Of a stretch of DNA of 64,000 nt, positions 46,463 to 59,855 are shown in pieces; position 1 is the first letter of the stretch, and every line of letters begins with the position of its first letter. This DNA comes from a virus: the IMG/VR virus record IMGVR_UViG_3300034061_002572, positions 58,644-122,643 of that record; one strand, given 5' to 3'. A program made the position numbers and the translations under genes. The notes beneath the pieces were generated by a model. It ran no database searches, was not told where the DNA came from, and saw nothing but the letters and a program-made list of their open reading frames with translations.

Positions 46463-46512
46463 GATTATTATTTTTATAATTATACACTATAATATACTAA
46501 AAATATTTGAAT

Positions 46513-46545
46513 AAAAAAAATCCCCGGAGAAATTTCCAGGGATTT
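46513..46545 (-). terminator. Intrinsic terminator
   Basis: A-tract plus ATCCCCGGA...TCCAGGGAT. Confidence 0.7.
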
Positions 46546-46591
46546 AACATTCTAGCATAATGTATAAATTAATCGTATAAGGGAGAAAACA

Positions 46592-46789
46592 CTAGAATAT
46601 AATTTTACCAAGTAGGATAGATAAAGCTATAATAATTCCAATGATTAGGTTAGATATTTGTCTACCCATTGGATCATCTTCATAATAGTTCTGCATTTTG
46701 TTCAATATAGGCTTACTAAATACATTAACCAGATACCATAGTACCACTATGAATCCAAATATTACAAGTATACCTAATGCTTTAAACAT
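46592..46789 (-). CDS. Small two-TM membrane protein
   Basis: 65 aa; TATATTTG box 4 nt upstream of the ATG (near-leaderless). Confidence 0.6.
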   Translation of the reverse strand: MFKALGILVIFGFIVVLWYLVNVFSKPILNKMQNYYEDDPMGRQISNLIIGIIIALSILLGKIIF

Positions 46790-46811
46790 AAGACAAATAT
46801 ATAAAGAATTT

Positions 46812-47150
46812 TTATTTATCCAAACTTTCTATTCTTTTTTTAAGATAAACCATGGCTTTTTCAAGATCTTCTTTATATCTACTAGAATCTTTTTTACCGG
46901 CCCGGGCAACATATTTAATAACATTACCCAAGTAGAAGTCTTTATCTAAACCCCATTCTTCAAGAACCCGGAATACTTCATATGGATTATCTTTACCACC
47001 ATAATATCCAGGTCTAGGACCTTCATCTAGTCTAACTATTCTATTTGTAAGATCTTTGGGATATCCATTAATATAAGAAAGTCTATCAGTAATTCCACTT
47101 GCCATATAGGTGTAAGGAGAAGCTGGAGTATTTTTCTTTTCATTGCTCAT
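46812..47150 (-). CDS. DUF3310 / T7 gp1.7-like nucleotide kinase
   Basis: YYGG...YE...FYLGNVIKYVARAGKK...EDLEKA.VYL. Confidence 0.8.
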   Translation of the reverse strand: MSNEKKNTPASPYTYMASGITDRLSYINGYPKDLTNRIVRLDEGPRPGYYGGKDNPYEVFRVLEEWGLDKDFYLGNVIKYVARAGKKDSSRYKEDLEKAMVYLKKRIESLDK

Positions 47151-47152
47151 AT

Positions 47153-47446
47153 CTACCAGATTATGATAACATCTCCTTCATTAAGTACAAGTTTGATTTC
47201 TCCATTGATATCTATCCGCTCAACTTGTTCCAAATTAAGAGCTGATGTACGGACATATACTTGGTCTCCAACTTTTACTTCTTCTACTTTATCCCCTACA
47301 GCATATACAGTAAGTTTATTCCATAGCTTGGCTGCTTCCTGCATCATAGCTTCTTCATCTTTTGCTGATAGCTCAATAGCTGACTTCTTTCTTTGTGGAA
47401 CATCTAGTAAGATAGTTCTACCTCTTAGTGATTTAAATGCTGACAT
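47153..47446 (-). CDS. groES: GroES-like co-chaperonin
   Basis: 97 aa; SLRGRTILL...VYAVGDKVEEVKVGDQVY...LVLNEGDVI Cpn10 pattern. Confidence 0.7.
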   Translation of the reverse strand: MSAFKSLRGRTILLDVPQRKKSAIELSAKDEEAMMQEAAKLWNKLTVYAVGDKVEEVKVGDQVYVRTSALNLEQVERIDINGEIKLVLNEGDVIIIW

Positions 47447-47733
47447 TATTTATTCTTTAGTGTTATTACTTTTACTACTGACATTTGAGCATTTAGGATT
47501 TCCCCCAGAGCATGGTCAAATAACAAACTTTTTAGGGGCCCTCTCTCAGCTTCATAATCTTTCTTTAAGATTTCAGCCATTTCTGCTGCTAATAACTTTA
47601 CTTTAGTTACTGTAGTGTCATCCAAATTATCTGGATCTAATCCTACTAACTGATGACCAAAAGGAACAATCTTGTGTTCATGGATTTCAGGAGCATTTTC
47701 TGGTACATTGTACACTGGTTTTTCTTTACTCAT
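47446..47733 (-). CDS. Acb2/Tad1-like helical-hairpin protein (candidate nucleotide-signal sponge)
   Basis: FGHQLVGL...VTKVKLLAAEMAEIL...HALGEILNAQMSVVKVIT. Confidence 0.5.
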   Translation of the reverse strand: MSKEKPVYNVPENAPEIHEHKIVPFGHQLVGLDPDNLDDTTVTKVKLLAAEMAEILKKDYEAERGPLKSLLFDHALGEILNAQMSVVKVITLKNK

Positions 47734-47752
47734 TGTATTTGGTTTTAATTTA

Positions 47753-48061
47753 TTACGCATCATACTTTTGTTTTGTGTTTATAGGTTTATTTTCTTTTTC
47801 TTCTTCAATAGGAGCCCCCTCAATAAGGTTATACTTGATTCTTTCTAATAAACCTATAAGAGCTAGATTATCATATGCATCTTCTGCAACTCTTACTTCT
47901 ATTCCGTCTGGTTTTTCTATAATAGACACTAATAATTTATCTGACATATTTAATAATTTATTTAATTCATCATAGAGCTCCCGGGCACGTAGATTATCCA
48001 TGCCGGCATCTCTAACATCTTCAGTTAACTTTCTCCACAACAACTTTTGCTGGGCAGTCAT
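47753..48061 (-). CDS. Hypothetical protein
   Basis: ATG at 48061 (alternative start 47947); ALIGLLERIKYNL. Confidence 0.55.
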   Translation of the reverse strand: MTAQQKLLWRKLTEDVRDAGMDNLRARELYDELNKLLNMSDKLLVSIIEKPDGIEVRVAEDAYDNLALIGLLERIKYNLIEGAPIEEEKENKPINTKQKYDA

Positions 48062-48139
48062 AGTCAAATAAATAATTAGGGAGTGTTGCTCTCATAGTTT
48101 GTTGGTAACACAAATATATAAACTATTTTGATTTAAACT

Positions 48140-48200
48140 AAAAACCCCAGAAAATTTTTCTAGGGTCTTCAGTACTACCATTAAAAATTAAATTATGAAC
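48140..48200 (-). ncRNA. Candidate ~60-nt small RNA
   Basis: TATATTTG box at 48205-48212 and terminator at 48140-48167, with no ORF between them. Confidence 0.4.
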
Positions 48201-48216
48201 ACTACAAATATACAAC

Positions 48217-48414
48217 TTATTTTATATCTCTGCCAAATGTCAAATTATTTTTTGCGCGGATGTCTTTATGAGTAAACTGCCAGAACTCACCAGTAGATGT
48301 TATTATCACAGTATAGATAGTATCAGTCTCATACCCGTAGTCAGTAACAAGCCAAATAACCCCCGGACCTTTAGGTGTATTAACCTCTATTCTATTATGG
48401 GGCTCATACATCAT
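48217..48414 (-). CDS. Small hypothetical phage protein
   Basis: 65 aa; V.TPKG.G..WLV.DYG.E..T...TGEFW family pattern. Confidence 0.65.
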   Translation of the reverse strand: MMYEPHNRIEVNTPKGPGVIWLVTDYGYETDTIYTVIITSTGEFWQFTHKDIRAKNNLTFGRDIK

Positions 48415-49078
48415 ATCCTGTAATGTTTATGTTTTCATCTCTTGCAACAAGAGTCTTGTACAACTCCACATCAGTTGACCATTCTTTACCTGTCCAAAAT
48501 TCAAACCCAGAATAGTTAGCTTTATATTCACAGCACTTCTCATATCCACCTAAGAGATACACATACTCACAGTTCAAAAGTTTTGCAGTTTTACATTCCA
48601 TCATCTGAGCTATGGTACCCAGAGAAAGTTTAGGATCTTTATAGTCCCAGATAAACTCATAAGCTACAAATTGTTTGTTAAACACCCTGTACAAACTAAT
48701 ACCTATTAATAAATCTGTGTGATATTCAATAACATTACAATCCTTAAAACTAGCTAGATTAATATCTCTCTTAAATCCATGATATTTACAGTACTTATCA
48801 TACAACTCTTCATACTGTTCTAGATTAGCCAGTACATCTCCGTGCTCTATGGTAACATACTTAGATAACTTCTTTGTAGTTTTAGCTGGCTTGTATTCAT
48901 TAAGATCTAATCTAACACTTCGGAGGTTATACCAATAATCCTCCCATAATATCCAACCTTCTTTTATTACATCCTCCTCAGATTCATTTGGTTCTAGTAC
49001 ACCATAAGGATTTGAGAATATAAAATCCATATGTTTAATCTTACCAAACCCAGTAATATGATCAAAGTATACTTTCAT
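48404..49078 (-). CDS. ATE/Bpt-like aminoacyl-tRNA-protein transferase
   Basis: ATG at 49078; RSVRLDL..YKP.KT.KKL, YEELYDKYC..H, WDY.DPKLSLGT, YVYL, YKANY.GFE resemble the ATE/Bpt C-terminal domain. Confidence 0.7.
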   Translation of the reverse strand: MKVYFDHITGFGKIKHMDFIFSNPYGVLEPNESEEDVIKEGWILWEDYWYNLRSVRLDLNEYKPAKTTKKLSKYVTIEHGDVLANLEQYEELYDKYCKYHGFKRDINLASFKDCNVIEYHTDLLIGISLYRVFNKQFVAYEFIWDYKDPKLSLGTIAQMMECKTAKLLNCEYVYLLGGYEKCCEYKANYSGFEFWTGKEWSTDVELYKTLVARDENINITGYDV

Positions 49079-49091
49079 AGAGTAAAGATAT

Positions 49092-49310
49092 AAAAAACCC
49101 GGGTAGTAATTCTTGATCAGAGAAACTTTCCCGGGGGTGTTACTAGTTATACATGTTGGTACCATGCTTTCCCAATAACCAAAAAGACCAGATATAGTGA
49201 GCAGATCTTACGGTATGCTGTCTGGTACTTAACCTATAGTTACTAACTACAGGGGAGGTATTCTATAGCAACAGTATCACCATAGGATTCCGTTAACAAG
49301 TAACGGTGGG
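49092..49310 (-). ncRNA. Candidate ~215-nt structured ncRNA
   Basis: TATATTTG box at 49316-49323, five consecutive hairpins, terminator at 49092-49137. Confidence 0.5.
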
Positions 49311-49326
49311 GTATGCAAATATAAAC

Positions 49327-49356
49327 AAAAAACCCCGGACTGTAGCTTCCAGGATT
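49327..49356 (-). terminator. Intrinsic terminator of a tiny unit driven by TATGTTTG (49395-49402)
   Basis: AAAAAACCCCGGA...TCCAGGAT. Confidence 0.55.
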
Positions 49357-49546
49357 TAATGATAATTTAAAAGTATAACTCAAAAAAGTTAATACAAACA
49401 TAAGTTTTTCTACGGCATATAGAAAAACAATATTTAGTAGTTTGTTAGGGTCCACTACTAATACACCCCCCGGCCCTCACCCGCAAGGTGGGTACCCCCC
49501 ATAAAATTCTGACTGTATGGCACTGTTCAGCTGTACTTGCAAGAAA

Positions 49547-49581
49547 TTTTTCCTGCGGAAAAAAGTTTTATTTTTTAACTG
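49547..49581 (+). promoter_or_regulatory. Hairpin promoter candidate 1
   Basis: TTTTTCC-TGC-GGAAAAA (template loop C-GCA-G) followed by TATTTTTTAACT. Confidence 0.5.
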
Positions 49582-49606
49582 ATTTTAAATTCTAAAAAAT
49601 AAAGTT

Positions 49607-49750
49607 ATGATATCAACTACATCAGTTCAGTCTATCAAAGGTGTTCTATGTCTTGTGCAAACAATCGTTTACAAGAGTGGCAAGAAAGTTAAAAGGATAT
49701 TAGATCCTAATACCAAAATGCCAATTGACATTATAGAAGTGAAGGCTTAG
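49607..49750 (+). CDS. First early ORF, 47 aa (not in ORF track)
   Basis: MISTTSVQSIKGVLCLVQTIVYKSGKKVKRILDPNTKMPIDIIEVKA; lies between hairpin 1 and a terminator. Confidence 0.55.
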   Translation: MISTTSVQSIKGVLCLVQTIVYKSGKKVKRILDPNTKMPIDIIEVKA

Positions 49751-49764
49751 GCCTTCTTTCTTTT
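49741..49764 (+). terminator. Intrinsic terminator
   Basis: GAAGGC-TTAG-GCCTTC-TTTCTTTT. Confidence 0.7.
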
Positions 49765-49800
49765 GTCCTTCGGACCGCTTTTTATTTTATTTTTTCACTA
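49765..49800 (+). promoter_or_regulatory. Hairpin promoter candidate 2
   Basis: GTCC-TTC-GGAC-CGCTTT...TATTTTTTCACTA (template loop C-GAA-G). Confidence 0.65.
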
Positions 49801-49825
49801 AAATGGAACTTTAAATCTTTATAAA

Positions 49826-50089
49826 ATGTCAGTATTTACAAAAACACAGTCTATCGGGGTATTTGCACAAATGAATGGAATCGGCAAAATTGACCTTGTA
49901 ACAAATCCTCACAATGGGAAAACATTTGGTGTTTCAGACACAGGTGTAACATTCAGGGTTTCTAATGACGTTCAGAAACTCACAGCAGATTTGTCTGTAT
50001 CTTGGTTCACACCAAATGACGGTGATGCATCCTGGATGATTCATCCTACTGGGCAGAGTAATGTTCAGTCCTCTCTGTCCTTTGCATAA
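49826..50089 (+). CDS. Early protein, paralog A
   Basis: 87 aa; V.NPH.GK.F and SW..P.DG..SWMIH pattern reminiscent of crAss-like early proteins. Confidence 0.75.
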   Translation: MSVFTKTQSIGVFAQMNGIGKIDLVTNPHNGKTFGVSDTGVTFRVSNDVQKLTADLSVSWFTPNDGDASWMIHPTGQSNVQSSLSFA

Positions 50090-50101
50090 GGGCACAGAAA
50101 G

Positions 50102-50134
50102 AAAAGAATATCCACTTAGGTGGTATTCTTTTTT
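50102..50134 (+). terminator. Intrinsic terminator
   Basis: AAAAGAATA.CCAC-TTAG-GTGG-TATTCTTTTTT. Confidence 0.7.
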
Positions 50135-50208
50135 AGGTACTAAGCCTCGAGAGTTCTACTGTTCCAATGAGGATAGTTGATCTGAGATATCTACAGTGTG
50201 TTTCCTCT

Positions 50209-50242
50209 GTGCTGCGCACCGCTTTAAATTATTTTTCCACTA
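50209..50242 (+). promoter_or_regulatory. Hairpin promoter candidate 3
   Basis: GTGC-TGC-GCAC-CGCTTT-AAAT-TATTTTTCCACTA. Confidence 0.7.
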
Positions 50243-50284
50243 AATTTAGTTATTAATTGTTTTACTTAAATCCTAAAAGAGCTT

Positions 50285-50560
50285 ATGAGCACATTTAGCA
50301 AAACTCAAAACATCGGTGTGTTTGCACAGATGAATGGTATCAACAAGATTGATATTGTGACTAATCCTCACACAGGTAAGAACTTCGGTGTGTCTGACAC
50401 TGGACTTACTTTCCGTGTAAGTGAGAAAGTAGATACATTGACAAGAGATTTGTCAGTGAGTTACTTCACTCCTGCAGACGGGGAGCCTTCTTGGATGATT
50501 CATCCAACAGGGGAGTCTAATGTGCAGAGCACATTGGCATTTGCACCTGCTTCCAAGTAA
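50285..50560 (+). CDS. Early protein, paralog B
   Basis: 91 aa; 67/87 identical to paralog A in a manual ungapped alignment. Confidence 0.75.
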   Translation: MSTFSKTQNIGVFAQMNGINKIDIVTNPHTGKNFGVSDTGLTFRVSEKVDTLTRDLSVSYFTPADGEPSWMIHPTGESNVQSTLAFAPASK

Positions 50561-50607
50561 TTGGGAGTGGGTAGCAATACCTGCAGATTTTATTGGTTAA
50601 AGATTGA

Positions 50608-50636
50608 AACCCTAGGAGACTAGGGTTATTTTTTTT
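50608..50636 (+). terminator. Intrinsic terminator
   Basis: AACCCTAG-GAGA-CTAGGGTT-ATTTTTTTT. Confidence 0.8.
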
Positions 50637-50650
50637 ATATAATATCTCTT

Positions 50651-50684
50651 GCACTGCGTGCCGCTTTGGTCTATTTTTCCACTA
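50651..50684 (+). promoter_or_regulatory. Hairpin promoter candidate 4
   Basis: GCAC-TGC-GTGC-CGCTTT-GGTC-TATTTTTCCACTA. Confidence 0.7.
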
Positions 50685-51099
50685 GCAGGGATTATGTTTA
50701 TTATAGACAAATCTTGTAAATGTTGTAGATTTTATAGTTATTATACACATGGTGCATACTCTACTAGGAGTGCATTGATACTTTGTATACATTAATGGTG
50801 TGCTACAGAGTGTTAGTTTAATAGTGAGTATTTAACTATCCACAATTCTATAACCTCTATAACTGCTGTATTTCCTCTATATATTAAGTTTATATAATAG
50901 AATTAATATAGCTAACACAAGATTCCTCTAGTCACTTTGTTTATACTATACTATACTATCTACAATATTTAGAAGAGATGTACAGTCAGAGTATCCGGGA
51001 TTTCCAGTCACACACCAATATGGCATTAGGAATAAACCAGTCTGGTACCCGTCAAAGACCATAATTCAAACTCAAGCAAACCTTAAACACAAATAAAAC

Positions 51100-51321
51100 A
51101 TGATTACAAAAGCAGTATTCATTTGGTTATTACTTACAGGACAAGTAGAATACCAACAGAACGGAGGAGATGGCCGGAAACAATATGCACTGTTCTTTGA
51201 AGATGGAACAGTAGTAGACTATGCTTATAAAGCAGAAATACTAGAGTATATAGAAACCGGAACATTTGAATATGATGATACTTTGGATGACAAAGTAACA
51301 GATGCACATAAGGGGAAGTAA
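51100..51321 (+). CDS. Hypothetical early protein
   Basis: 73 aa; followed by the hairpin AAGGGGAA-GTAA-TTCCCCTT. Confidence 0.65.
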   Translation: MITKAVFIWLLLTGQVEYQQNGGDGRKQYALFFEDGTVVDYAYKAEILEYIETGTFEYDDTLDDKVTDAHKGK

Positions 51322-51331
51322 TTCCCCTTTA

Positions 51332-51446
51332 TACTCTCATCCAAGCAGGTAAGGATATGCTACTAGTAGATTTCGTCAATCTATTACTGTGGGCACTTAA
51401 TGGAATGACTACATCCTCAAGGGTTGCAACCTTGTGAGAGTACTAA
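51332..51446 (+). ncRNA. tRNA-like multi-stem RNA element
   Basis: 8-bp closing stem, D-arm-like TCC-AAGCAGGTAA-GGA, T-arm-like CAAGG-GTTGCAA-CCTTG. Confidence 0.45.
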
Positions 51447-51475
51447 TTAAATTATTAACCCTTAAACTTATACTT

Positions 51476-51739
51476 ATGGAAACTATTTACTGGACTATGA
51501 AGAATGGTCAGAAGATTAATGTTGATACTATGGACATTAATCACCTCCGGAATACTCTCAAGATGCTTATTAGAGCCAAGAGAGCATCAACTACACCTAA
51601 GCCTAAGTTTCAGGTGCACGGTGAGATTGCTAGTGAGTTTGCTGATATGGCAAGACTCTATGCAATTAATCCTGAACTGACTTGTACTTGTGATGAAGTA
51701 CATGTGTGTCAGCAATGTTATGAATTAGATATTAAATAA
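51476..51739 (+). CDS. Hypothetical protein
   Basis: YWTMKNGQKINVDTMDINHLRNTLKML family motif; C-terminal Cys cluster. Confidence 0.65.
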   Translation: METIYWTMKNGQKINVDTMDINHLRNTLKMLIRAKRASTTPKPKFQVHGEIASEFADMARLYAINPELTCTCDEVHVCQQCYELDIK

Positions 51740-51817
51740 AACTCTGACTATGGAAATTCTGATTATTACAGTATTGTTAATGCTGTTATTTTATTCACAA
51801 ATTAAACTAAACCAAAA

Positions 51818-51991
51818 ATGAAAAATCTGATTTTATCTTTTGTAGTAACTATGATTACTTCAATGGCAGTATTTGCCATATTATTATTCTCCCTGATTGA
51901 TATTATGGGAGAAAGTATCATTATCATTGCTTGTATTGCTTCTGTAATAACTATAGTTGTGACAGATAGATTTATGAAAAATGGAAGGTGA
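51818..51991 (+). CDS. Small two-TM membrane protein (57 aa, not in track)
   Basis: MKNLILSFVVTMITSMAVF...; overlaps its neighbours; a 23-aa hydrophobic ORF (51750-51821) precedes it. Confidence 0.5.
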   Translation: MKNLILSFVVTMITSMAVFAILLFSLIDIMGESIIIIACIASVITIVVTDRFMKNGR

Positions 51992-52739
51992 TATTACATT
52001 CCTATGGGGTCAGGATAGATATAGTGAGTATGTCACTGTAGTAAATGCTGACCCTGAGTATCAAAGACTTGTGTTTTACAGTAGAAAAATAGGAGATGTA
52101 AACTATGCAACAAGAAAGATAACTGATACTCATGTATACTGGTCTGTTAGTCAAAAGACTCCGCACTTTTACAATAACAAACTATTCTATAAGCATCAGA
52201 ATACCAGTGGTATTACTTATGACAGAAAATCTAAGAAACTAAAAGTCTGGTTTGGTCAACACATTAGATCATTTGATAATGATATCATTAAAGATATAGC
52301 AGAATATTTTAATGCTGAGTGGTATTTAGAAATTGAACATAGTATTAAATCATTAGTAAACAATACCATATTTAACCATATAATTAATGGAAAGATTAAT
52401 TGTTTAGAAGAAATATGTATTGCCTATCTTAAAACATCACCGTATAAAAATAGAGATATAGATATAAATCTTTTTTGTGATGTATTTAAAAATACTGATG
52501 CTTCACCAAAAGGTTTTTCACAATGGTTTGTTATTGCTAAAGATTGTAATGATTTACTTAATCATTTACAGAAACATGGTTTTGCAACTTATCAACTTGA
52601 ACATGTAATTAATAAATCTAGTGCATTAAATAGAAAGATTGATTTTAGTAAGAAACCTAATAATATATTAGATTTTTGTGAAAAGTATCAGAATGAAATT
52701 AAAAATCAAATAATTATTTATGAAGCTATTCAAGATTAG
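51981..52739 (+). CDS. Hypothetical protein
   Basis: 252 aa ORF. Confidence 0.65.
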   Translation: MEGDITFLWGQDRYSEYVTVVNADPEYQRLVFYSRKIGDVNYATRKITDTHVYWSVSQKTPHFYNNKLFYKHQNTSGITYDRKSKKLKVWFGQHIRSFDNDIIKDIAEYFNAEWYLEIEHSIKSLVNNTIFNHIINGKINCLEEICIAYLKTSPYKNRDIDINLFCDVFKNTDASPKGFSQWFVIAKDCNDLLNHLQKHGFATYQLEHVINKSSALNRKIDFSKKPNNILDFCEKYQNEIKNQIIIYEAIQD

Positions 52740-52799
52740 CCCTTTACAGTAGGAGGTGAAACTGTTTTTATTATTTACCGGTCAGTAAAAAAATAAACC

Positions 52800-53039
52800 A
52801 TGGGATTAAGAAAATTATTAGAAGAAAAAGAAAGCTTGGAAGATGAATTGTATATGTTACACCATGCAGAACTTCCTCCGGCAGTTTATAAACAAACTAG
52901 ACATGACATTGAATACAGGTTAGCTTGTTTAGAAGAACAAATAGAGTTTGAAGAAAGGTTCAGACCATTTAGAATTACACTCATAGTAGCTTCAGTTATT
53001 ATGATGGGTATTATGTTGTATGCACTTATTAATCTTTAA
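52800..53039 (+). CDS. Coiled-coil protein with C-terminal TM segment
   Basis: 79 aa. Confidence 0.65.
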   Translation: MGLRKLLEEKESLEDELYMLHHAELPPAVYKQTRHDIEYRLACLEEQIEFEERFRPFRITLIVASVIMMGIMLYALINL

Positions 53040-53050
53040 ATCAGAATAGA

Positions 53051-53446
53051 ATGGAAAAAGAATTTGTAAATTATGATCTAAGTTTAAGGATGAAGACTCT
53101 TGGGTTCAATGAACCTTGTTTTGGATATTATTTAGAAACAAAAGAATGGACACCAGCAAGTTATTCAAGAGAAGGAACAGTTTATCCATCTAATAGTAAT
53201 TTACTATCTGATTGGGTAGCTGCACCAACATTCTCACAAACATTTAGATGGTTTAGAGATAAGTATAATTTAGATTCATGCCTAAAACCAGAAATCATAA
53301 GTGGTAAAAAAAGTTATGACTTTTACATTTGGATTGATAATAATGAAGATTTAGAATTTGGTGTGACTAAAATATCAACTTACGAAGAAGCAGAACTTAT
53401 TTGTCTTGAAAAACTAATTGAAATTGTAGAACAAAAAGAAAAATAA
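53051..53446 (+). CDS. Hypothetical phage protein
   Basis: EKEFV.Y.L...MK.LGF.EPC...APT.SQ.FRWFR...TYEEAEL.CL.KLIEIV family pattern. Confidence 0.7.
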   Translation: MEKEFVNYDLSLRMKTLGFNEPCFGYYLETKEWTPASYSREGTVYPSNSNLLSDWVAAPTFSQTFRWFRDKYNLDSCLKPEIISGKKSYDFYIWIDNNEDLEFGVTKISTYEEAELICLEKLIEIVEQKEK

Positions 53447-53447
53447 T

Positions 53448-53993
53448 ATGGCAAGAATAGCAAAAACAGTAAAAAATGACTTAAGCACTCTTAAGCAGAG
53501 TTGTGTAGGTAAAAAGATGAAAGGTTTTAAGTTTGCTGATACAGCTAAGCAGGTTTATGTTACTGATATGAATAAGTTTATTGGTCAAGTAGGTAAAATT
53601 AAAGAGTATTATGAGGACAGTGATGAGTTTGCGGTTCAGTTTAAAGATAGTATCTGGTATTATCCAGCAACTAAAGCTCTGAAACATATTGTAGAAGAAC
53701 CAAAAGTATCTGATGAAGACTTAATAGATGTCAAACAAATAGTAGATGATGCTTATGTAGCTATGCTTAAAGAGGAAATAGAAGATCTATCAGCTAAATT
53801 AGACCAAGCTTACAAAGAACAAGAACAAATGCTTGATGAGTTAAAACAATGGATTAATGCATTTCCTGGTGCCTTTACTAAACTTATAGAACATGTAGGA
53901 CAAATTACTGAGGAAGATATTACTTATCACACTGGTATAGTTCTTAGAGTTATGGAGCACAAGTTTGGTTATAAATCTAAAACAGAAGAGTAA
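53448..53993 (+). CDS. Hypothetical protein
   Basis: 181 aa. Confidence 0.65.
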   Translation: MARIAKTVKNDLSTLKQSCVGKKMKGFKFADTAKQVYVTDMNKFIGQVGKIKEYYEDSDEFAVQFKDSIWYYPATKALKHIVEEPKVSDEDLIDVKQIVDDAYVAMLKEEIEDLSAKLDQAYKEQEQMLDELKQWINAFPGAFTKLIEHVGQITEEDITYHTGIVLRVMEHKFGYKSKTEE

Positions 53994-54018
53994 ATTATTA
54001 ATTAAAAACAAAAACAAA

Positions 54019-54483
54019 ATGAAAACAGTTAAATTTTTAGTATTAAGCCTAGTATTGGCTTCAGTTATGACATCTTGCTCAGAGAATTACTCTAATGGTG
54101 AGAGAATTGGTATGTTAACCAAGTTTTCCAAAAAGGGGTTAATTTGGGATTCCTGGGAAGGAACATTAAACACTACTCAAACAGGTATGAATTCAGCAGA
54201 ATCATTTCAGTTTTCAGTAGATAATGATGTAAATGACCCAGTAACTATTAGTAAATTAGACTCTGCTGCTAGCAAAGGTTGGAAGATTAAAATTAAGTAT
54301 CACCAAACATTTGGTTGGAATTGGTTTAATAACCGGGGTGAAACTAATTTCTTTGTCAATGAAGTAGAAGTACTTGACAGAGATCCAATTGGTAATATGT
54401 TTGGTGGACAGTCTAATAAACCCATAGGAGGTAAAGTAGTAGACACTATTTATGTTGTGATAGATAAGTCACAGCTTAAATAA
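54019..54483 (+). CDS. Lipoprotein
   Basis: MKTVKFLVLSLVLASVMTSC lipobox; YSNGERIG..TKFSKKG..W.SWEG. Confidence 0.7.
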   Translation: MKTVKFLVLSLVLASVMTSCSENYSNGERIGMLTKFSKKGLIWDSWEGTLNTTQTGMNSAESFQFSVDNDVNDPVTISKLDSAASKGWKIKIKYHQTFGWNWFNNRGETNFFVNEVEVLDRDPIGNMFGGQSNKPIGGKVVDTIYVVIDKSQLK

Positions 54484-54525
54484 CCAAGTTGCGTGCACCT
54501 ATAGCCGTATTAGACAGATAAAAGG

Positions 54526-54864
54526 TGTAATAGTCTGTCTTATTTATTAACTTTTAAACTAAAACAAAATGGCACAAATTAATTTTAAAGTAACAACATG
54601 GGAAGTAGCATATATTCCTGATGAACTTGTAGATATTGTTAAAAAAGGTATTGAAGATGGTACAATTACTTCTTCTATGGATCTTTTTGATATACCTGAA
54701 TTAGAAGAAATTGATTTTGACCTTCAGCTTTCAGATGATGGACTAGATCAATTATCTGTAGAAAAAAACAATGGAGAATATACAATTGAATTAAGAACAG
54801 ATGAAGAATATGAGTTAATTACAACTAATCTTAATTCTAATAAATAATGTAATAGTCTGTCTTA
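54526..54864. repeat. 17-bp direct repeats TGTAATAGTCTGTCTTA (54526-54542 and 54848-54864) flanking one gene
   Basis: Exact repeat read directly from the sequence. Confidence 0.85.
54569..54847 (+). CDS. Acidic hypothetical protein
   Basis: 92 aa; lies between the direct repeats. Confidence 0.65.
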   Translation: MAQINFKVTTWEVAYIPDELVDIVKKGIEDGTITSSMDLFDIPELEEIDFDLQLSDDGLDQLSVEKNNGEYTIELRTDEEYELITTNLNSNK

Positions 54865-54866
54865 AA

Positions 54867-54956
54867 ACATGTAAACCTAAGTACCCATACAGCAGTGAGA
54901 TGGGCTAAGTTATATACAATTCCTCGGAGCTGGGAGTAGAATGCTTAGGAACGTGT
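54867..54956 (+). ncRNA. Candidate three-way-junction RNA element
   Basis: ACATGT/ACGTGT, CCTAAGTA/TGCTTAGG, CCCAT/ATGGG and ATTCCT/GGGAGT stems. Confidence 0.4.
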
Positions 54957-54977
54957 CTTTTATTAACTAAAAAATGT

Positions 54978-55307
54978 ATGATTATGAAATGGTTCAGGAA
55001 ATTATTTAAAAAAAAGAGTTATCCACAGGATAATAAGTTTAAACTATGTATTATTGATGAGAAATCAGATTTAATACATGAGGTATTGGGTATTACAGAA
55101 GAAAGATGCCGGGAATTAACTAAGTTATGCCTTGAAGCATATGATGCTACTGATGCAAAAACTGAGTCATATTCTATGATTGTAGACAAATGTACACATG
55201 TCAATGAAGTTGTAATGGGCATTCAGATATTTGAAAAAATATGCTGTGAAAGAGCTAAGAAAAGAAGTTTAAGAAATTTAATGGATAATTTATTTGGCAA
55301 TGAATGA
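54978..55307 (+). CDS. Hypothetical protein
   Basis: 109 aa. Confidence 0.65.
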   Translation: MIMKWFRKLFKKKSYPQDNKFKLCIIDEKSDLIHEVLGITEERCRELTKLCLEAYDATDAKTESYSMIVDKCTHVNEVVMGIQIFEKICCERAKKRSLRNLMDNLFGNE

Positions 55308-55512
55308 TTTAATTACTTCTGTTCTTGGGATGGATCTCAAGGCAGACATTAGAGATATTAATGGTGATATTATACCAACTGGTTGTAAAAGAACTGTTCA
55401 TCCTGTAGAAAGAGTAAGTATTAAACTCCGGATGCTAGATAAAAGATTCTTTACACACTATAATGAAGCTCTGTTAAATAAAATTATTAATTACAGAAGA
55501 TTAAATGACTAG
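55300..55512 (+). CDS. Hypothetical protein
   Basis: 70 aa; overlaps the upstream gene. Confidence 0.6.
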   Translation: MNDLITSVLGMDLKADIRDINGDIIPTGCKRTVHPVERVSIKLRMLDKRFFTHYNEALLNKIINYRRLND

Positions 55513-55514
55513 TT

Positions 55515-55934
55515 ATGAAGATATCTGTAAATTATGAAGATACTGATGTAGCAAAAGCATTAGGAACTATTATTTATCATCCAAACAAAGATGAATTTGT
55601 TAAGTTATTAACTCCAATACTATGTGGTAGTAGTGACGCAACAAACTATTTCTTTAAGTTATTGATTGGTGATACACTTCCGGAAGTTATCCCTAATGGC
55701 ACTTTATGTAAAATTAAAGTAGACAGATTAGGTTATTCTAGTAACAAAGATGAGATTAGAAAGAAGTTTGCTGATGATGAAGATAAGGTACTTGTTACTG
55801 TCAAAGAATTTAGAGGATATCATGAGTATTCTCAGTATCATATTGAGTATGGGAATGTTTTATCAGATAGTATTGTAGAGAAAGATACTACTTATGTGAG
55901 TGCTAAAGAACTGGAAGTTATTGAAGAGTTTTAA
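55515..55934 (+). CDS. Hypothetical protein
   Basis: 139 aa. Confidence 0.65.
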   Translation: MKISVNYEDTDVAKALGTIIYHPNKDEFVKLLTPILCGSSDATNYFFKLLIGDTLPEVIPNGTLCKIKVDRLGYSSNKDEIRKKFADDEDKVLVTVKEFRGYHEYSQYHIEYGNVLSDSIVEKDTTYVSAKELEVIEEF

Positions 55935-55976
55935 GATAGTATATCTGTGGATATGCTTTTCCTGACCAAATGACAC

Positions 55977-56000
55977 GGGGAGTAGTAATGCTCCCCTTTT
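55977..56000 (+). terminator. Intrinsic terminator
   Basis: GGGGAGTA-GTAA-TGCTCCCC-TTTT. Confidence 0.7.
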
Positions 56001-56080
56001 CATTGTTAGCCATATAGTATAATAATTTATAAAGCACTATCATATGTTTACTATTTAATAGTTTACATTTACTAAACTTT

Positions 56081-56365
56081 ATGAATTTAAACATGCTGTA
56101 TCAATTACCTAATGGAAAGGTAATATTTCTAACCATAGACCAGTTCTTAGATCTTACAGATGAAGATATACAATATCTTATGTCAATAGATGCTGGCGAA
56201 CATACAGTAAGTCCCTTTACAGATTCCGCAGTAGTAGCCAATACTAAAGAAAAATATTATGATTTTGATTATTATGTAGATGATGAGATTGATATCAACA
56301 ATATTGTTTCTGATGATATACCATTTGATGATATTATAGATCTCAATGATTCCTTAGAAGAATAA
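56081..56365 (+). CDS. Highly acidic hypothetical protein
   Basis: LYQLPNGKVI.LTIDQFLDLTDEDIQYL; Asp-rich tail. Confidence 0.65.
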   Translation: MNLNMLYQLPNGKVIFLTIDQFLDLTDEDIQYLMSIDAGEHTVSPFTDSAVVANTKEKYYDFDYYVDDEIDINNIVSDDIPFDDIIDLNDSLEE

Positions 56366-56405
56366 GGAGTTCAAAAATTATATTCACACACCAAATCAAA
56401 TTTTT

Positions 56406-56870
56406 ATGGACGGTAAAACAATTGTGTTAGGCAATGACACAGGAGGGGTAATTCATACCTCAAAAAATGACGAATATGGATATATTCGTGTAGAACAAGA
56501 AAGAAGTTTATTTGACAGCAAAGGTTTCTTAAGAAGAAAATCTATATCAGCTTTAATACCTGGTACTATAGAAGATCTTACAAAAGCAGGTTTTTATAAA
56601 GGTCAGATTCTTCCGGGTAAGATTATTATTGTGGAACAAACTGAACCATTTAATAAAATAAGGCCGGACCTAGATCTTAAAGTTGCTGGTCAAACAGGGA
56701 TAATCTGTATGAAAGATGGCAAAAAGATTTATAGAAAACACTTTTATACAGTGTTTACTGATGCAGAAGATGAAATGATTATGCACAGTAATGGTGAAGA
56801 CATTAGTGAAGCCTACTTGGCAGAAAAGAAAACTACTGCTGTTCAACCGAATACAGAGTTTGACTTATAA
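56406..56870 (+). CDS. Conserved crAss-like protein, possibly ssDNA-binding
   Basis: Beta-rich; GYIRVEQ and LPGKIIIVE; acidic/aromatic C-terminus EFDL. Function is a guess. Confidence 0.4.
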   Translation: MDGKTIVLGNDTGGVIHTSKNDEYGYIRVEQERSLFDSKGFLRRKSISALIPGTIEDLTKAGFYKGQILPGKIIIVEQTEPFNKIRPDLDLKVAGQTGIICMKDGKKIYRKHFYTVFTDAEDEMIMHSNGEDISEAYLAEKKTTAVQPNTEFDL

Positions 56871-56945
56871 TTTTTTGTTTTAATGGTTGATAATAGGGGG
56901 CAGTGGTGTCCCCTTTTTTATTATTTATTTTTAATTGTATATGTT

Positions 56946-57452
56946 ATGGAAAAGCAAAACAGAAATCAAAAGTATCAATTTTCAGGTAAGTTATCTGAAT
57001 ATCAGTTTAAGAATCAAAGACCTACTGTCATGCAGTATGAGACTGATCGTTATTCTCAGTATCAAAACTATCTCTATAAGAGAGCATTATATGGTTTAGA
57101 TTCTCTTACTGAAAAAGAAATAGCTACAATGTGTAGCAAAAAGAAACAAAGAATAATTAATGTTTATAAAAGAGCTCAGCTTACACTTAATAAGTTTAAG
57201 CAACAAGTTACTATTCAGTATACCAACTTTATATTCAAAACATTATTCCCAAAATCTCCGATCACAGACTTCTTACTAGCTGATACTGAGATAGATGAAA
57301 AGTTTAAGAATACTCTAACTTTTAAAGAGTTAGGTATCAATAAAGAGCAAATTATTAGTATCTTTATAGCGGAAGGTATACTACCTAAAAACTTTTTAAG
57401 TTTAAAAGAAGCACCGGTCAGTCTACCTCAGCTTAAAAATCAAAAAGTATGA
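56946..57452 (+). CDS. Hypothetical protein
   Basis: ATG at 56946, after a terminator-like hairpin at 56894-56919. Confidence 0.65.
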   Translation: MEKQNRNQKYQFSGKLSEYQFKNQRPTVMQYETDRYSQYQNYLYKRALYGLDSLTEKEIATMCSKKKQRIINVYKRAQLTLNKFKQQVTIQYTNFIFKTLFPKSPITDFLLADTEIDEKFKNTLTFKELGINKEQIISIFIAEGILPKNFLSLKEAPVSLPQLKNQKV

Positions 57453-57781
57453 AAACATTTTATGACAAAAGAGGTGGTCTGGAACCTGGATATAGATCTA
57501 GCATAGACACCGTACAAGGAAGAGTTATTTGGAAAACAAAAACTCATTGGCTTATTTATGTACCTAAAGATGATTATTATCATTCAGGTATGAGTTGGCT
57601 ACATAATGAAGACAGATATCACACAACCTTAATTGGATTTATTGTTATTCCAAAAGGTGTTGTGGTACATAGCTGTTATCTGGCTACAGGATTCTGGGAT
57701 GGTCTTAAAGCTTTATTTAGAAGTGGTAAGACTCCTGCCGTAACTAAGTCAAAAGGTGAGTTTCCTGAAGAACTATTATGA
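57449..57781 (+). CDS. Hypothetical protein
   Basis: 110 aa; ATGA coupling. Confidence 0.6.
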   Translation: MKTFYDKRGGLEPGYRSSIDTVQGRVIWKTKTHWLIYVPKDDYYHSGMSWLHNEDRYHTTLIGFIVIPKGVVVHSCYLATGFWDGLKALFRSGKTPAVTKSKGEFPEELL

Positions 57782-58182
57782 AACTTAAAATCTGTGATGG
57801 CTGTCAGAAAGAGACAGTCATCTGGAAAAACCATGAGGGATTCAAATACTGTAAATATTGCTGGAGTTGCCAAAAAGCCATTAATAGTGACAGTACACAG
57901 AAACCAACTGACTATAAAATCCCTCAGGTTTCTTCTAAACGGAAGAAAAAGGATGCAGAGTACAGTAAACTCAGAGAAAGATTTCTAACAGATAACCCTT
58001 TGTGTATGGTTGAGGTGAACGGATGTGGTCATGGTGCCACTGATGTTCACCATACATACGCAGGAGCTAACAGAGATGCTTTTTATTTGGTTCAGAGTAC
58101 ATGGAAAGCGGTTTGTAGAAACTGTCATGATTGGATTCATTCTCATCCAGAAGAAGCGAGAATAATGAATTGGTTAAAATAA
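57778..58182 (+). CDS. HNH endonuclease-like protein with N-terminal Zn finger
   Basis: CDGC...CKYC; C...C...ATDVHH...VCRNCHDWIH. Confidence 0.75.
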   Translation: MKLKICDGCQKETVIWKNHEGFKYCKYCWSCQKAINSDSTQKPTDYKIPQVSSKRKKKDAEYSKLRERFLTDNPLCMVEVNGCGHGATDVHHTYAGANRDAFYLVQSTWKAVCRNCHDWIHSHPEEARIMNWLK

Positions 58183-58187
58183 AATTT

Positions 58188-58484
58188 ATGAATAAATTAG
58201 AAGTAAATAAAAAAATAGCACTGTTTAATGGTGATATTACCAGTATGTCTGATGAAAAGGACATGTCTGAATTAAACTATACTGAGTCTTGGGATAAATT
58301 AATTCCTGTATATCAGAAGTTATGTCAAAAATCTAAAGAATTATATGACAAGAAAAATGTAGATGGGTTTCTCTATATTAATCATTGTATTGAAAATGAT
58401 TTAGATTTAAAAGCATCCTCTGAATTACATTTTGCTATTGCCCTGGTCAGTGTTATTGATGAATACTATTGCGAAATTAAATAA
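58188..58484 (+). CDS. Hypothetical protein
   Basis: NKKIALF...LNY..SWDKLIPV family pattern. Confidence 0.6.
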   Translation: MNKLEVNKKIALFNGDITSMSDEKDMSELNYTESWDKLIPVYQKLCQKSKELYDKKNVDGFLYINHCIENDLDLKASSELHFAIALVSVIDEYYCEIK

Positions 58485-58485
58485 T

Positions 58486-59577
58486 ATGAAAAGAGAAGAA
58501 ATACAAGAAGAAGCTTTGAAAGCAACACTTGGTTTAGCAAGATGTGGATTAGGACTTGCAACAGGAGTTGGTAAAACTCTTGTTGGACTTCTTCACATAG
58601 AGAGAAATTATTCTCCACTAATTAATATTTTAGTTGTAGCTCCTAAGGTATCAATATTTGGTTCTTGGCGGTATGAAGCACAGAAGTTTGGAAAAGAGAA
58701 GTTACTTGACAATGTTGTATTTACAACTTATCTAAGTTTAAGTAAACATGATCCTAGAGAATATGATATTGTCTATTTAGATGAGTGTCATAGTTTATTG
58801 GATAGTCATAGACCTTTTCTTGAAAACTTTCAGGGTAAAATCTTAGGATTAACCGGTACTCCACCCAAATACAAGAGCTCAGAGAAAGGTAGAATGGTTT
58901 CTGAGTTTTGTCCTATTGTTTATACATTCATTACTGATGAAGCCGTAGAGAATAAAATACTCAATGACTATCATATTATAGTTCATGAGCTCCAGTTAGA
59001 CACAAGAAAGAACTTTCCTGTATCTACAAAGTCAGGAACCTTTATGTCTTCTGAAAGACAAAACTATGGTTATTGGTGTAATAGAATAGACAATGGTCAA
59101 GGTCCTGCACATATTACTAGAGTTATGAGAATGAAAGCAATGCAAGAGTATCCGAGTAAAGTTCAGTATGCAAAAGCACTTATGGAAAGCATTAAAACTA
59201 AATGCATCATATTTGCAAATACTCAAGATCAATCGGACTCTATATGCTCTCATAGTTACCATAGTAATAATCCACAATCTGAAAGTAATCTTACAGCATT
59301 TAAAGATGGTAGTATTCAGCGGTTATCTTGTGTGCTCCAGCTTAATGAAGGTGTAAACATACCAAATCTAAAACAGGGTATTATCTTACATGCCTATGGT
59401 AATGAAAGAAAAGCCAGTCAAAGAATTGGTAGATTACTACGGTTAAATCCAGATGATAAAGCTATTGTCCATATCTTATGTTATATGGATACAATAGATG
59501 AGAAATGGGTTAAAGAAGCCTTAGAAGGTTTTGACCAGACTAAAATTACCTGGAAAGATTTTAATATCTCCTTATAA
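58486..59577 (+). CDS. Superfamily 2 (DExH, ResIII-like) helicase
   Basis: ATGVGKT, DECH, LGLTGTP, LNEGVNIP, QRIGRLLR. Confidence 0.9.
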   Translation: MKREEIQEEALKATLGLARCGLGLATGVGKTLVGLLHIERNYSPLINILVVAPKVSIFGSWRYEAQKFGKEKLLDNVVFTTYLSLSKHDPREYDIVYLDECHSLLDSHRPFLENFQGKILGLTGTPPKYKSSEKGRMVSEFCPIVYTFITDEAVENKILNDYHIIVHELQLDTRKNFPVSTKSGTFMSSERQNYGYWCNRIDNGQGPAHITRVMRMKAMQEYPSKVQYAKALMESIKTKCIIFANTQDQSDSICSHSYHSNNPQSESNLTAFKDGSIQRLSCVLQLNEGVNIPNLKQGIILHAYGNERKASQRIGRLLRLNPDDKAIVHILCYMDTIDEKWVKEALEGFDQTKITWKDFNISL

Positions 59578-59594
59578 TTACTTATATTAGATAT

Positions 59595-59855
59595 ATGGAA
59601 ATAACAAATTCATACAAACTACTAATGTATAATGATGACATCCATTCCTTTCCATATATAATGGCATGTCTAATTAGATTTTGTGAACAAGAACCATTAC
59701 AGGCTGAGCAATGTGCTCTTATAGCCCATAATAAAGGTAAATGTTCTGTTAAATCTGGAGATTTTATTGATTTACTAGAAATACATAATAACTTTGAAAG
59801 AGTAAATGTAAAAACAGAAATTGTTGCACATGAAAGTTATATGCATAAACAATAG
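59595..59855 (+). CDS. clpS: ClpS-like N-degron adaptor
   Basis: LLMYNDDIHSF..I..CL..FC.....QAEQCALIAH.KGKC.VK.G; Bacteroidota-type ClpS pattern. Confidence 0.85.
   Translation: MEITNSYKLLMYNDDIHSFPYIMACLIRFCEQEPLQAEQCALIAHNKGKCSVKSGDFIDLLEIHNNFERVNVKTEIVAHESYMHKQ

Follow-up and report, generated by a model that had tools for sequence, protein, structure and literature searches.

We analysed a 64,000-nucleotide stretch of viral DNA (hereafter the window), which is the right-hand 64 kb (58644-122643) of the 122,643-bp IMG/VR virus record IMGVR_UViG_3300034061_002572 (CheckV completeness 100%). The window has a G+C content of about 32%, and PHROGs identify portal, large terminase and major head genes within it. 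Our interest focused on two further genes, namely a gene for a relative of the ATE1/Bpt aminoacyl-tRNA-protein transferases and a gene for the adaptor ClpS. A first reading made from the sequence alone had joined them into a phage-encoded N-degron writer and reader, with reference to bacterial Bpt, which transfers Leu to Asp/Glu N-termini, and to ClpS, which delivers substrates to Clp proteases; it had itself called this linkage speculative. The family assignments of both genes and the positions of their open reading frames (ORFs) are borne out here, but the functional pairing is not: the true companion of the transferase gene is a small ORF encoding a protein of 65 amino acids (aa). As had been noted, transferase and ClpS genes are separated by roughly 10 kb (10.5 kb by our measurement) and lie on opposite strands; they also belong to different transcription blocks.

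Table 1 Genes and sequence features of the window considered in this work (position 1 is the first nucleotide of the window).
Feature	Position	Strand	Remarks
ATE1/Bpt-like transferase, 224 aa	48404..49078	-	without Cys cluster; virus-restricted clade; Pfam ATE_C, AF2, Foldseek, HHalign
65-aa protein, predicted all-beta, partner of the transferase	48217..48414	-	11-nt overlap with the end of the transferase gene
ClpS core without N-terminal extension, 86 aa	59595..59855	+	directly after the helicase gene in the plus-strand block; Pfam ClpS
Terminator-like hairpin upstream of the cassette, at the start of the transferase-headed unit	49330..49357	-	10-pair stem and T run; consensus match only
Terminator-like hairpin closing the six-gene minus-strand unit	46518..46545	-	11-pair stem and T run; consensus match only

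The longest ORF at the transferase locus (48404-49165, minus strand) comprises 253 aa and matches Pfam ATE_C (PF04377) with 31.5 bits (cut-off 25, E 3.1e-7) over residues 130-223, in line with the ATE/Bpt-like C-terminal part that had been recognised from its motifs. In a homologue search, 122 of 243 candidates matched at E ≤ 1e-3. Nearly all of the 120 homologues listed are 217-234 aa long and align from Met30 of this long ORF, so that the true start lies at 49078 and the protein has 224 aa, as originally annotated. A family alignment was built from 40 diverse members, to which all residue counts given below as x/40 refer. Pfam recognises ATE_C in 34 and Acetyltransf_6 in three of these members, and ATE_N (PF04376), the domain with the four-cysteine cluster, gave no match in 40/40.

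Structures of ATE1 (K. lactis 7WFX/7WG1, S. cerevisiae 7TIF/8E3S, human 8TZV) are closest to the transferase both by profile (E 1e-8) and by fold. When compared with the PDB, the family profile found no entries below E 0.1 other than ATE1 structures, which it matched at E 1e-8 to 2e-8. The AF2 model built on the 40-member alignment (mean pLDDT 94.3, pTM 0.89) returned ATE1 in nine of the top ten Foldseek rows (best E 1.8e-8, TMq 0.62), followed by aminoacyl-phosphatidylglycerol synthase/MprF domains and FemX at E 5e-7 to 1e-5. However, with 224 aa compared with about 500, the phage enzyme is under half the size of ATE1. It is similar in length to Bpt, the Asp/Glu leucyltransferase (ATE_N plus ATE_C; NCBIfam PRK01305 models), for which eight canonical proteins from Burkholderiales genomes served as reference (24 of the 26 genomes searched have ATE_N). 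HHalign aligned the 40-member family with these proteins at a probability of 97.2% (E 8.7e-11), pairing phage residues 1-204 with Bpt residues 1-240; since this alignment covers the whole length, the transferase is a full-length, collinear relative of Bpt and not its catalytic half alone. At the same time, it stays far below the thresholds of the NCBIfam Bpt equivalog models, all seven of which gave 21-30 bits against cut-offs of 170-358 (best 30.3 against 252).

Functional residues were mapped by our own profile-to-PDB and HHalign alignments onto the K. lactis enzyme (klAte1), the chain numbering of 7WFX running four ahead of the klAte1 numbering (PMC9351520). The equivalent of the catalytic Lys304 is Lys186, which is Lys in 40/40 members, and the catalytic Tyr303 is represented by Tyr in 32/40 and by Trp in 7/40. 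The equivalents of Trp260 (Trp in 35/40) and Tyr173 (Tyr in 36/40) are likewise conserved. Together with an equivalent of Glu277 (see below), these are the residues that the phage enzyme has kept in common with ATE1, whereas the position of His178 is not conserved. Furthermore, none of the four Bpt cysteines (CSYL, CxxCxxC) has a Cys counterpart: opposite them stand a gap, other residues and a conserved Trp (38/40), which confirms the absence of the Cys cluster. In klAte1, Arg80 is the first Arg of GFRRSG and is assigned to the acidic N-terminal residue of the acceptor, and its charge reversal abolishes arginylation (PMC9351520). The positions of Arg80 and Arg81 are occupied by Arg or Lys in 0/40 members; where the motif GFRRSG would stand, the phage proteins carry GW and then residues such as Leu, Ile, Ala or Pro. 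With the Arg80 equivalent gone, the acceptor amine would not be an Asp/Glu N-terminus.

The donor pocket is formed by Ser255, Ser273, Glu277 and Tyr289 in klAte1 and by Ala, Ala, Gln and Leu in Bpt (PMC9351520). At the corresponding positions, the phage family has Ser (26/40), Ser (23/40), Glu (38/40) and Leu or Val (25/40), and the window protein has Ala139, Ala157, Glu161 and Val173. The conserved Glu161 suggests Arg or another basic residue as the donor amino acid. Because Glu is found here as in ATE1, where Bpt has Gln, a Leu product readable by ClpS is not predicted; the other three pocket positions of the window protein, however, are Bpt-like and do not speak for a basic donor. Altogether, the phage enzyme departs from ATE1 (Cys cluster and Arg80/Arg81 pocket) as well as from Bpt (all four cysteines, GFRRSG and the pocket Gln).

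With respect to its occurrence, the transferase family is almost confined to viral contigs, which also distinguishes it from Bpt. Among 1.84 billion representative proteins, 160 matched at E ≤ 1e-3, 86 at 1e-10 and 12 at 1e-30. A pattern scan of IMG/VR gave 599 matches, at least 532 of which encode a relative of the transferase, and one genome per species from 185,579 species contributed only seven transferase loci, all on contigs of metagenome-assembled genomes (MAGs); these two scans both hang on one short peptide pattern. No match to the transferase was obtained with tblastn among 50,697 phage records, and neither the transferase nor ClpS nor the 65-aa protein was assigned to a PHROGs family. 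A literature search by title and abstract, without subscription journals or supplements, retrieved no paper on a phage arginyltransferase or an ATE/Bpt-like transferase of phages.

The phage itself, a lake phage, is best explained as a distant crAss-like phage of Bacteroidota, judging from its terminase: the only deposited phages that this protein matches are crAss-like or belong to Flavobacterium, Bacteroides and Azobacteroides, with identities no higher than 25%. In IMG/VR, more than 600 relatives of this terminase were found, mostly on fragments, and megablast of 18 kb of the window against the 50,697 phage records gave no match. The closest match of the transferase in a cellular genome lies on a 117,852-bp phage-like contig binned into a Chitinophagaceae MAG, and we used Chitinophagaceae as a candidate host family only. 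In this family, 37/41 genomes encode ClpS and 5/41 an ATE_C protein. The candidate host MAG encodes ClpB and an 862-aa ClpC/ClpA-like protein, which scores below both the ClpA and the ClpB cut-offs of NCBIfam. The phage, on the other hand, has no tRNA gene in the window or in the rest of its genome, no L/F-transferase (Aat, PF03588) that could complete a cascade, and no Clp ATPase N-domain (PF02861). As ClpS is found in 37/41 genomes of the candidate host family, the provision of an adaptor would not by itself call for a phage copy.

As a side observation, the cellular ATE_C proteins of Chitinophagaceae (L255-L259) also lack the Bpt Cys cluster; they have GWYRM in place of GFRRSG and Lys or Thr at the position of ATE1 Glu277. 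With 68.7 bits, one of them (L257) falls well short of the NCBIfam Bpt cut-off (170). These proteins may represent an undescribed Bacteroidota branch of the ATE/Bpt family.

The gene most closely associated with the transferase is that of the 65-aa protein. Searching 46 IMG/VR loci with tblastn revealed a 65-aa homologue directly downstream of the transferase in 45/45 loci that offered 200 nt or more for it; the remaining locus had no room downstream and was left out of the count. At these loci the small protein is 56-94% identical to that of the window, compared with 36-76% for the transferase itself, and its alignment has a mean column identity of 76%. Similarly, the 65-aa gene is present in 6/6 genomes with the transferase (G001, G003, G007, G017, G018 and G020) and in 0/5 genomes without it (G006, G009, G012, G010 and G013). 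The linkage is strict, and the two genes form an obligate two-gene cassette; an obligate small partner gene is a further difference from ATE1. The 65-aa protein has no Pfam or PHROG family match, and in the ESM Atlas it is found in viral hypothetical clusters only. Its AF2 model shows five strands at low confidence (pLDDT 63.1), and Foldseek retrieved no match for it in the PDB at E 0.001 or better.

The distribution of the cassette does not follow that of the terminase. The terminase of G017 is only 25% identical to that of the window and the terminase of G020 gave no match to it, and both genomes carry the cassette. In contrast, G006 and G012, with terminases 87% and 81% identical to that of the window, are without it. 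This pattern indicates that the two genes of the cassette are transferred together from one phage lineage to another. Of the two distant genomes, G017 comprises 124,113 bp with terminal repeats and G020 64,149 bp, with the cassette at 58-64% and 69-78% identity.

A further comparison covered 17 loci, which include 16 contigs with more distant transferase homologues, several of them T4-like. Here, the gene after the transferase is of the 65-aa type in five loci, encodes a protein of 150-180 aa in ten and is neither of the two in the remaining two loci. HHalign compared the 65-aa and the 150-180-aa families at a probability of 1%, and the two partner families are therefore unrelated. The larger partner (L389:6915-7439, L390:6934-8181, L391:6849-8057 and seven more loci) shows the motifs DIPYxxGYS..DGKTxYxDRH, HExxEK and YQxAH. 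Its core has no Pfam match, and a long form gave one marginal NTP_transf_2 match below the cut-off; in three loci it is fused to a C-terminal domain that belongs to phrog_36119, a family of unknown function. Besides that, a RimI-like GNAT acetyltransferase (Acetyltransf_1, E 1e-16 to 1e-11) adjoins the ATE-like gene in 4/17 loci (L388:5711-6148, L389:5808-6248 and two more).

We further looked at whether transferase and ClpS travel together. The records compared were reached via one or the other gene and represent an ascertained sample; completeness values are those of CheckV. Both genes are present in G000 (100%), G001 (99%), G003 (100%), G007 (97%), G014 (86%), G015 (87%) and G016 (84%), and also in G008 (75%), G022 (40%) and contig C153 of G011. 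Only ClpS was found in G006 (98%), G009 (100%), G012 (100%) and G010 (74%). Only the transferase was found in G017, G018 and G020 (100% each) and in G002 (90%), where the gene lies at the very end of a linear contig, as well as in the less complete records G019 (56%), G021 (45%), G004 (28%) and G005 (47%). Neither gene is present in G013 (62%). Hence, the records that are at least 84% complete comprise seven with both genes, three with ClpS only and four with the transferase only. A phage ClpS profile at E 0.1, run without a positive control, gave no match in G017, G018, G020, G002 and G107; the Pfam ClpS model did pick up phage ClpS in relatives. Among the 16 contigs with distant transferase homologues (46-151 kb), ClpS is present in one, and in 0/4 of those that are at least 85% complete. 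These data show that the occurrence of the transferase is independent of that of ClpS. The sequence-only reading had named co-occurrence in relatives beforehand as one observation on which a writer and reader pair would stand or fall; each gene is found alone in complete relatives, and a lack of co-occurrence is largely what we observed.

The assignment of the second gene to ClpS is clear: the protein matches Pfam ClpS (PF02617) with 49.6 bits (cut-off 23, E 3.5e-13) over residues 5-57 and contains the motifs YNDD and QAEQCA..AH.KG, by which it had been recognised. We found 154 relatives, mostly of 84 aa; among database records, just three matched, which come from uncultured phages of 635-642 kb and are 43-47% identical. 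The NCBIfam ClpS models gave 20-23 bits against cut-offs of 107-149. In E. coli ClpS, the residues N34, D35 and H66 grip the alpha-amino group of the N-degron. The profile of the phage proteins aligns over residues 5-52 with E. coli residues 26-75, so pairing Asn13 with N34, Asp14 with D35 and His45 with H66. When 27 phage sequences were aligned together with ClpS from the candidate host MAG, Asn13 and Asp14 proved invariant (28/28 rows), and His45 is found in the window protein and most rows. The phage core also shares EQAEQCA and a Phe at the position of E. coli M40 with ClpS of the candidate host family. Its core fold family and the equivalents of N34, D35 and H66 are what the phage protein has in common with both E. 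coli ClpS (1MBU/3O2B) and Bacteroidota ClpS.

However, the phage protein differs at its N-terminus. Only 4 residues precede the core (counted to the equivalent of E. coli residue 26), where E. coli ClpS has a 25-residue extension. The upstream helicase ORF reaches to 59577, 18 nt short of the ClpS start codon, and thus leaves no room for a longer N-terminus. For the E. coli extension (residues 2-25), length and not sequence was reported to matter: residues 20-25 (6 residues) are needed for a strong ClpA complex, residues 17-25 (9 residues) to block ssrA substrates, and residues 12-25 (14 residues) are the minimum for N-degron delivery (PMC8666677, PMC9663308). In cellular ClpS, about 20-25 residues precede the core, and those of the candidate host family exceed the phage form by about 20 residues at the N-terminal end; in the 28 of 30 loci that were parsed, the conserved Asn is located at 27-61 (median 33.5, counted from the first ATG) compared with 13-14 in the 27 phage proteins, and 28/28 have the long tail. 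The phage ClpS, which had been regarded as a deliverer, hence lacks the extension that E. coli ClpS needs for this task. A predicted complex of the phage ClpS with the N-domain of the ClpC/ClpA-like protein of the host MAG scored 0.32, compared with 0.64 for one control with an unrelated protein, and thus speaks neither for nor against binding. In the literature, no paper joining ClpS with "phage-encoded" was found by our search. A fuller ClpS was seen at G098:C1:82979-83215, on the single distant transferase-bearing contig that has a ClpS, covering Pfam profile positions 1-79 with 78 bits in a 105-aa open frame, compared with 84-86 aa for the phage form.

With moderate confidence, we explain these findings by two independent accessory modules in a distant crAss-like Bacteroidota phage, and not by a coupled N-degron writer and reader. 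The first module would be a mobile two-gene cassette, in which a virus-restricted, cysteine-free relative of ATE1/Bpt is joined by an overlapping frame to an obligate and presumably beta-rich partner of 65 aa. The ATE1-type fold and the catalytic Tyr-Lys pair suggest that the transferase keeps the chemistry of tRNA-dependent aminoacyl transfer, and as the phage encodes no tRNA, the amino acid is most likely taken from host aminoacyl-tRNA. The cassette may act as one unit, with this host donor, on an acceptor other than an acidic N-terminus, probably an amine of a protein or peptide, and the 65-aa partner may supply the acceptor-selecting element or itself be this element. The second module would be a ClpS core of the Bacteroidota type, which to judge from the conserved residues could still grip the alpha-amino group of N-degrons. 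If the rules described for E. coli (PMC8666677, PMC9663308) also apply here, a ClpS with a 4-residue tail would bind destabilising N-termini without handing them to an unfoldase. Such a tail-less ClpS would more likely shield N-termini or compete with host ClpS than drive degradation.

Several observations weigh against this explanation. On the side of the transferase, R53 and R56 are invariant in the family, and R53, which has no counterpart in Bpt, could replace Arg80. Three of the four pocket positions of the window protein (Ala139, Ala157 and Val173) are Bpt-like, so that a hydrophobic donor such as Leu is possible, and the confidence of the HHalign alignment is only moderate over the N-terminal half. 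The role foreseen for the 65-aa partner is drawn from the linkage of the two genes. On the side of ClpS, the rules for the length of the extension were measured with E. coli ClpA, whereas the partner in the candidate host would be the 862-aa ClpC/ClpA-like protein. The host assignment in turn comes from one binned phage-like contig and from terminase matches of at most 25% identity. Finally, the two genes do co-occur in 7/14 records that are at least 84% complete, as well as in less complete records and on the 117.9-kb MAG contig.

Among the alternatives, it is rather unlikely that the phage ClpS, short tail notwithstanding, functions in delivery and retargets host ClpC/ClpA-ClpP to N-termini chosen by the phage. 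The residues for N-degron binding are kept and the form of 84-86 aa is conserved in the 27 aligned phage ClpS of the 154 relatives, and the ClpC-like nature of the host partner means that the extension rule of E. coli ClpA may not transfer. A published review also reads ClpS of jumbo phages in this way: for these proteins, including gp708 of Agrobacterium phage Atu_ph07, which are likewise found without a phage ClpA, use of host ClpAP has been proposed (Iyer et al. 2021, PMC7824862; PMC6102473); the passages on these proteins make no mention of an absent N-terminal extension. In contrast to these, the window belongs to a 123-kb crAss-like phage and not to a jumbo phage. Delivery is difficult to reconcile with a tail of 4 residues, when E. 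coli requires 14 for delivery and 6 for a tight complex (PMC8666677), with the long tail kept in all parsed cellular ClpS of the candidate host family, and with hosts that for the most part already have a ClpS of their own.

A second alternative concerns the cassette, which might act on a non-protein acceptor. This could be a DNA base, as for phage Mu Mom with Gly-tRNA, an envelope precursor or lipid, as for FemX and MprF, or a small molecule that is bound or processed by the partner. We regard this as unlikely, but as a serious rival since Mom was shown to glycylate DNA from Gly-tRNA (PMC13219725). Mom (8BV8) is a phage enzyme of the GNAT superfamily that draws on host aminoacyl-tRNA, as the window transferase probably does, and it illustrates that tRNA-dependent transferases of phages need not act on proteins; the authors of that work emphasise that the substrates of Mom were unpredictable from structure (PMC13219725). 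A non-protein acceptor would also agree with the loss of the Cys cluster and of the N-terminus-selecting arginine, with aminoacyl-phosphatidylglycerol synthases and FemX as the next fold neighbours, and with the 150-180-aa partner of other lineages, whose HExxEK motif (10/17 loci) would fit a short pathway. Nevertheless, ATE1 is clearly closest by sequence and fold, the alignment with Bpt is full-length and extends beyond the catalytic GNAT half, and the 65-aa partner has no enzyme-like family match. Moreover, Mom is a dimer of single GNAT domains that acts on adenine in double-stranded DNA (PMC13219725), its fold being marked by Arg111, Ser124 and a cleft for DNA binding, and it matched the window transferase neither by sequence nor among the Foldseek rows listed.

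Beyond the two modules as such, an anti-N-degron strategy can be envisaged, which we put forward tentatively and consider rather unlikely as a whole. The tail-less ClpS, expressed from the early block, would cap destabilising N-termini against the host ClpS-ClpC/ClpA-ClpP machinery; these could be new ends left by the processing of phage proteins, or arise from cleavage by host defence proteases. The cassette would, separately, represent a new, virus-only class of tRNA-dependent tagging, in which the choice of target would fall to the small subunit and the addition of a basic amino acid to the enzyme. If this were true, both modules would be undescribed ways of a phage editing host proteostasis.

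The original proposal, that the transferase marks host proteins or cleavage products with a destabilising N-terminal residue and that ClpS then delivers them to the host Clp protease, can appeal to two genuine gene families that are found together in ten of the records named above, to the N-degron-binding Asn/Asp/His of ClpS, to the largely Bpt-like donor pocket of the window protein and to the Clp ATPases and ClpS of the candidate host family, but it is improbable in view of the distance and orientation of the two genes, their separate occurrence in complete relatives and their near-complete dissociation on the distant contigs, the acidic-acceptor arginine missing throughout the family, the conserved ATE1-type Glu where the Leu-transferring Bpt has Gln (PMC9351520), and a ClpS tail of 4 residues instead of 14 (PMC8666677). 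It survives only as facultative cooperation in phages that hold both genes, and the attractive picture of a complete viral mark-and-destroy kit is corrected as unsupported.

While phage-encoded ClpS is already known from jumbo phages (PMC7824862, PMC6102473), what this window contributes is the 65-aa partner and the evidence for movement of the cassette between phage lineages. The transferases form a clade that numbers hundreds of members in phages of lakes and the sea; it has lost the known target-selecting parts and is tied to small, lineage-specific partner genes, and its target is therefore probably one that has not yet been described. In general, tRNA-dependent aminoacyl transferases are few, and each known class has its own, important target, namely protein N-termini, peptidoglycan, lipids and now DNA. 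The tail-less ClpS, for its part, is a naturally occurring case in which to ask whether the N-degron pathway of bacteria can be diverted or shut down by a phage.

With regard to the surrounding genes, the transferase heads a minus-strand unit of six genes, which continues with the 65-aa partner, two genes of unknown function, a GroES-like gene and a DUF3310 gene. A scan for terminator-like patterns gave seven sites in the scanned region compared with 2.2 expected, and a sigma-70 promoter scan of 46500-50700 remained at chance level (22 found, 19.2 expected). Within this unit, the 97-aa ORF at 47153-47446 (minus strand) shows a weak match to GroES co-chaperonins (phrog_3188, E 9.2e-5) and no Pfam match. 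The plus-strand block starts with two ORFs of 87 and 91 aa (49826-50089 and 50285-50560), of which the former has no Pfam match and which by translation are clear paralogues of each other. Further along this block, an HNH endonuclease-like ORF (57778-58182, plus strand; phrog_2323, E 3.3e-12) is located just upstream of the helicase-ClpS pair.

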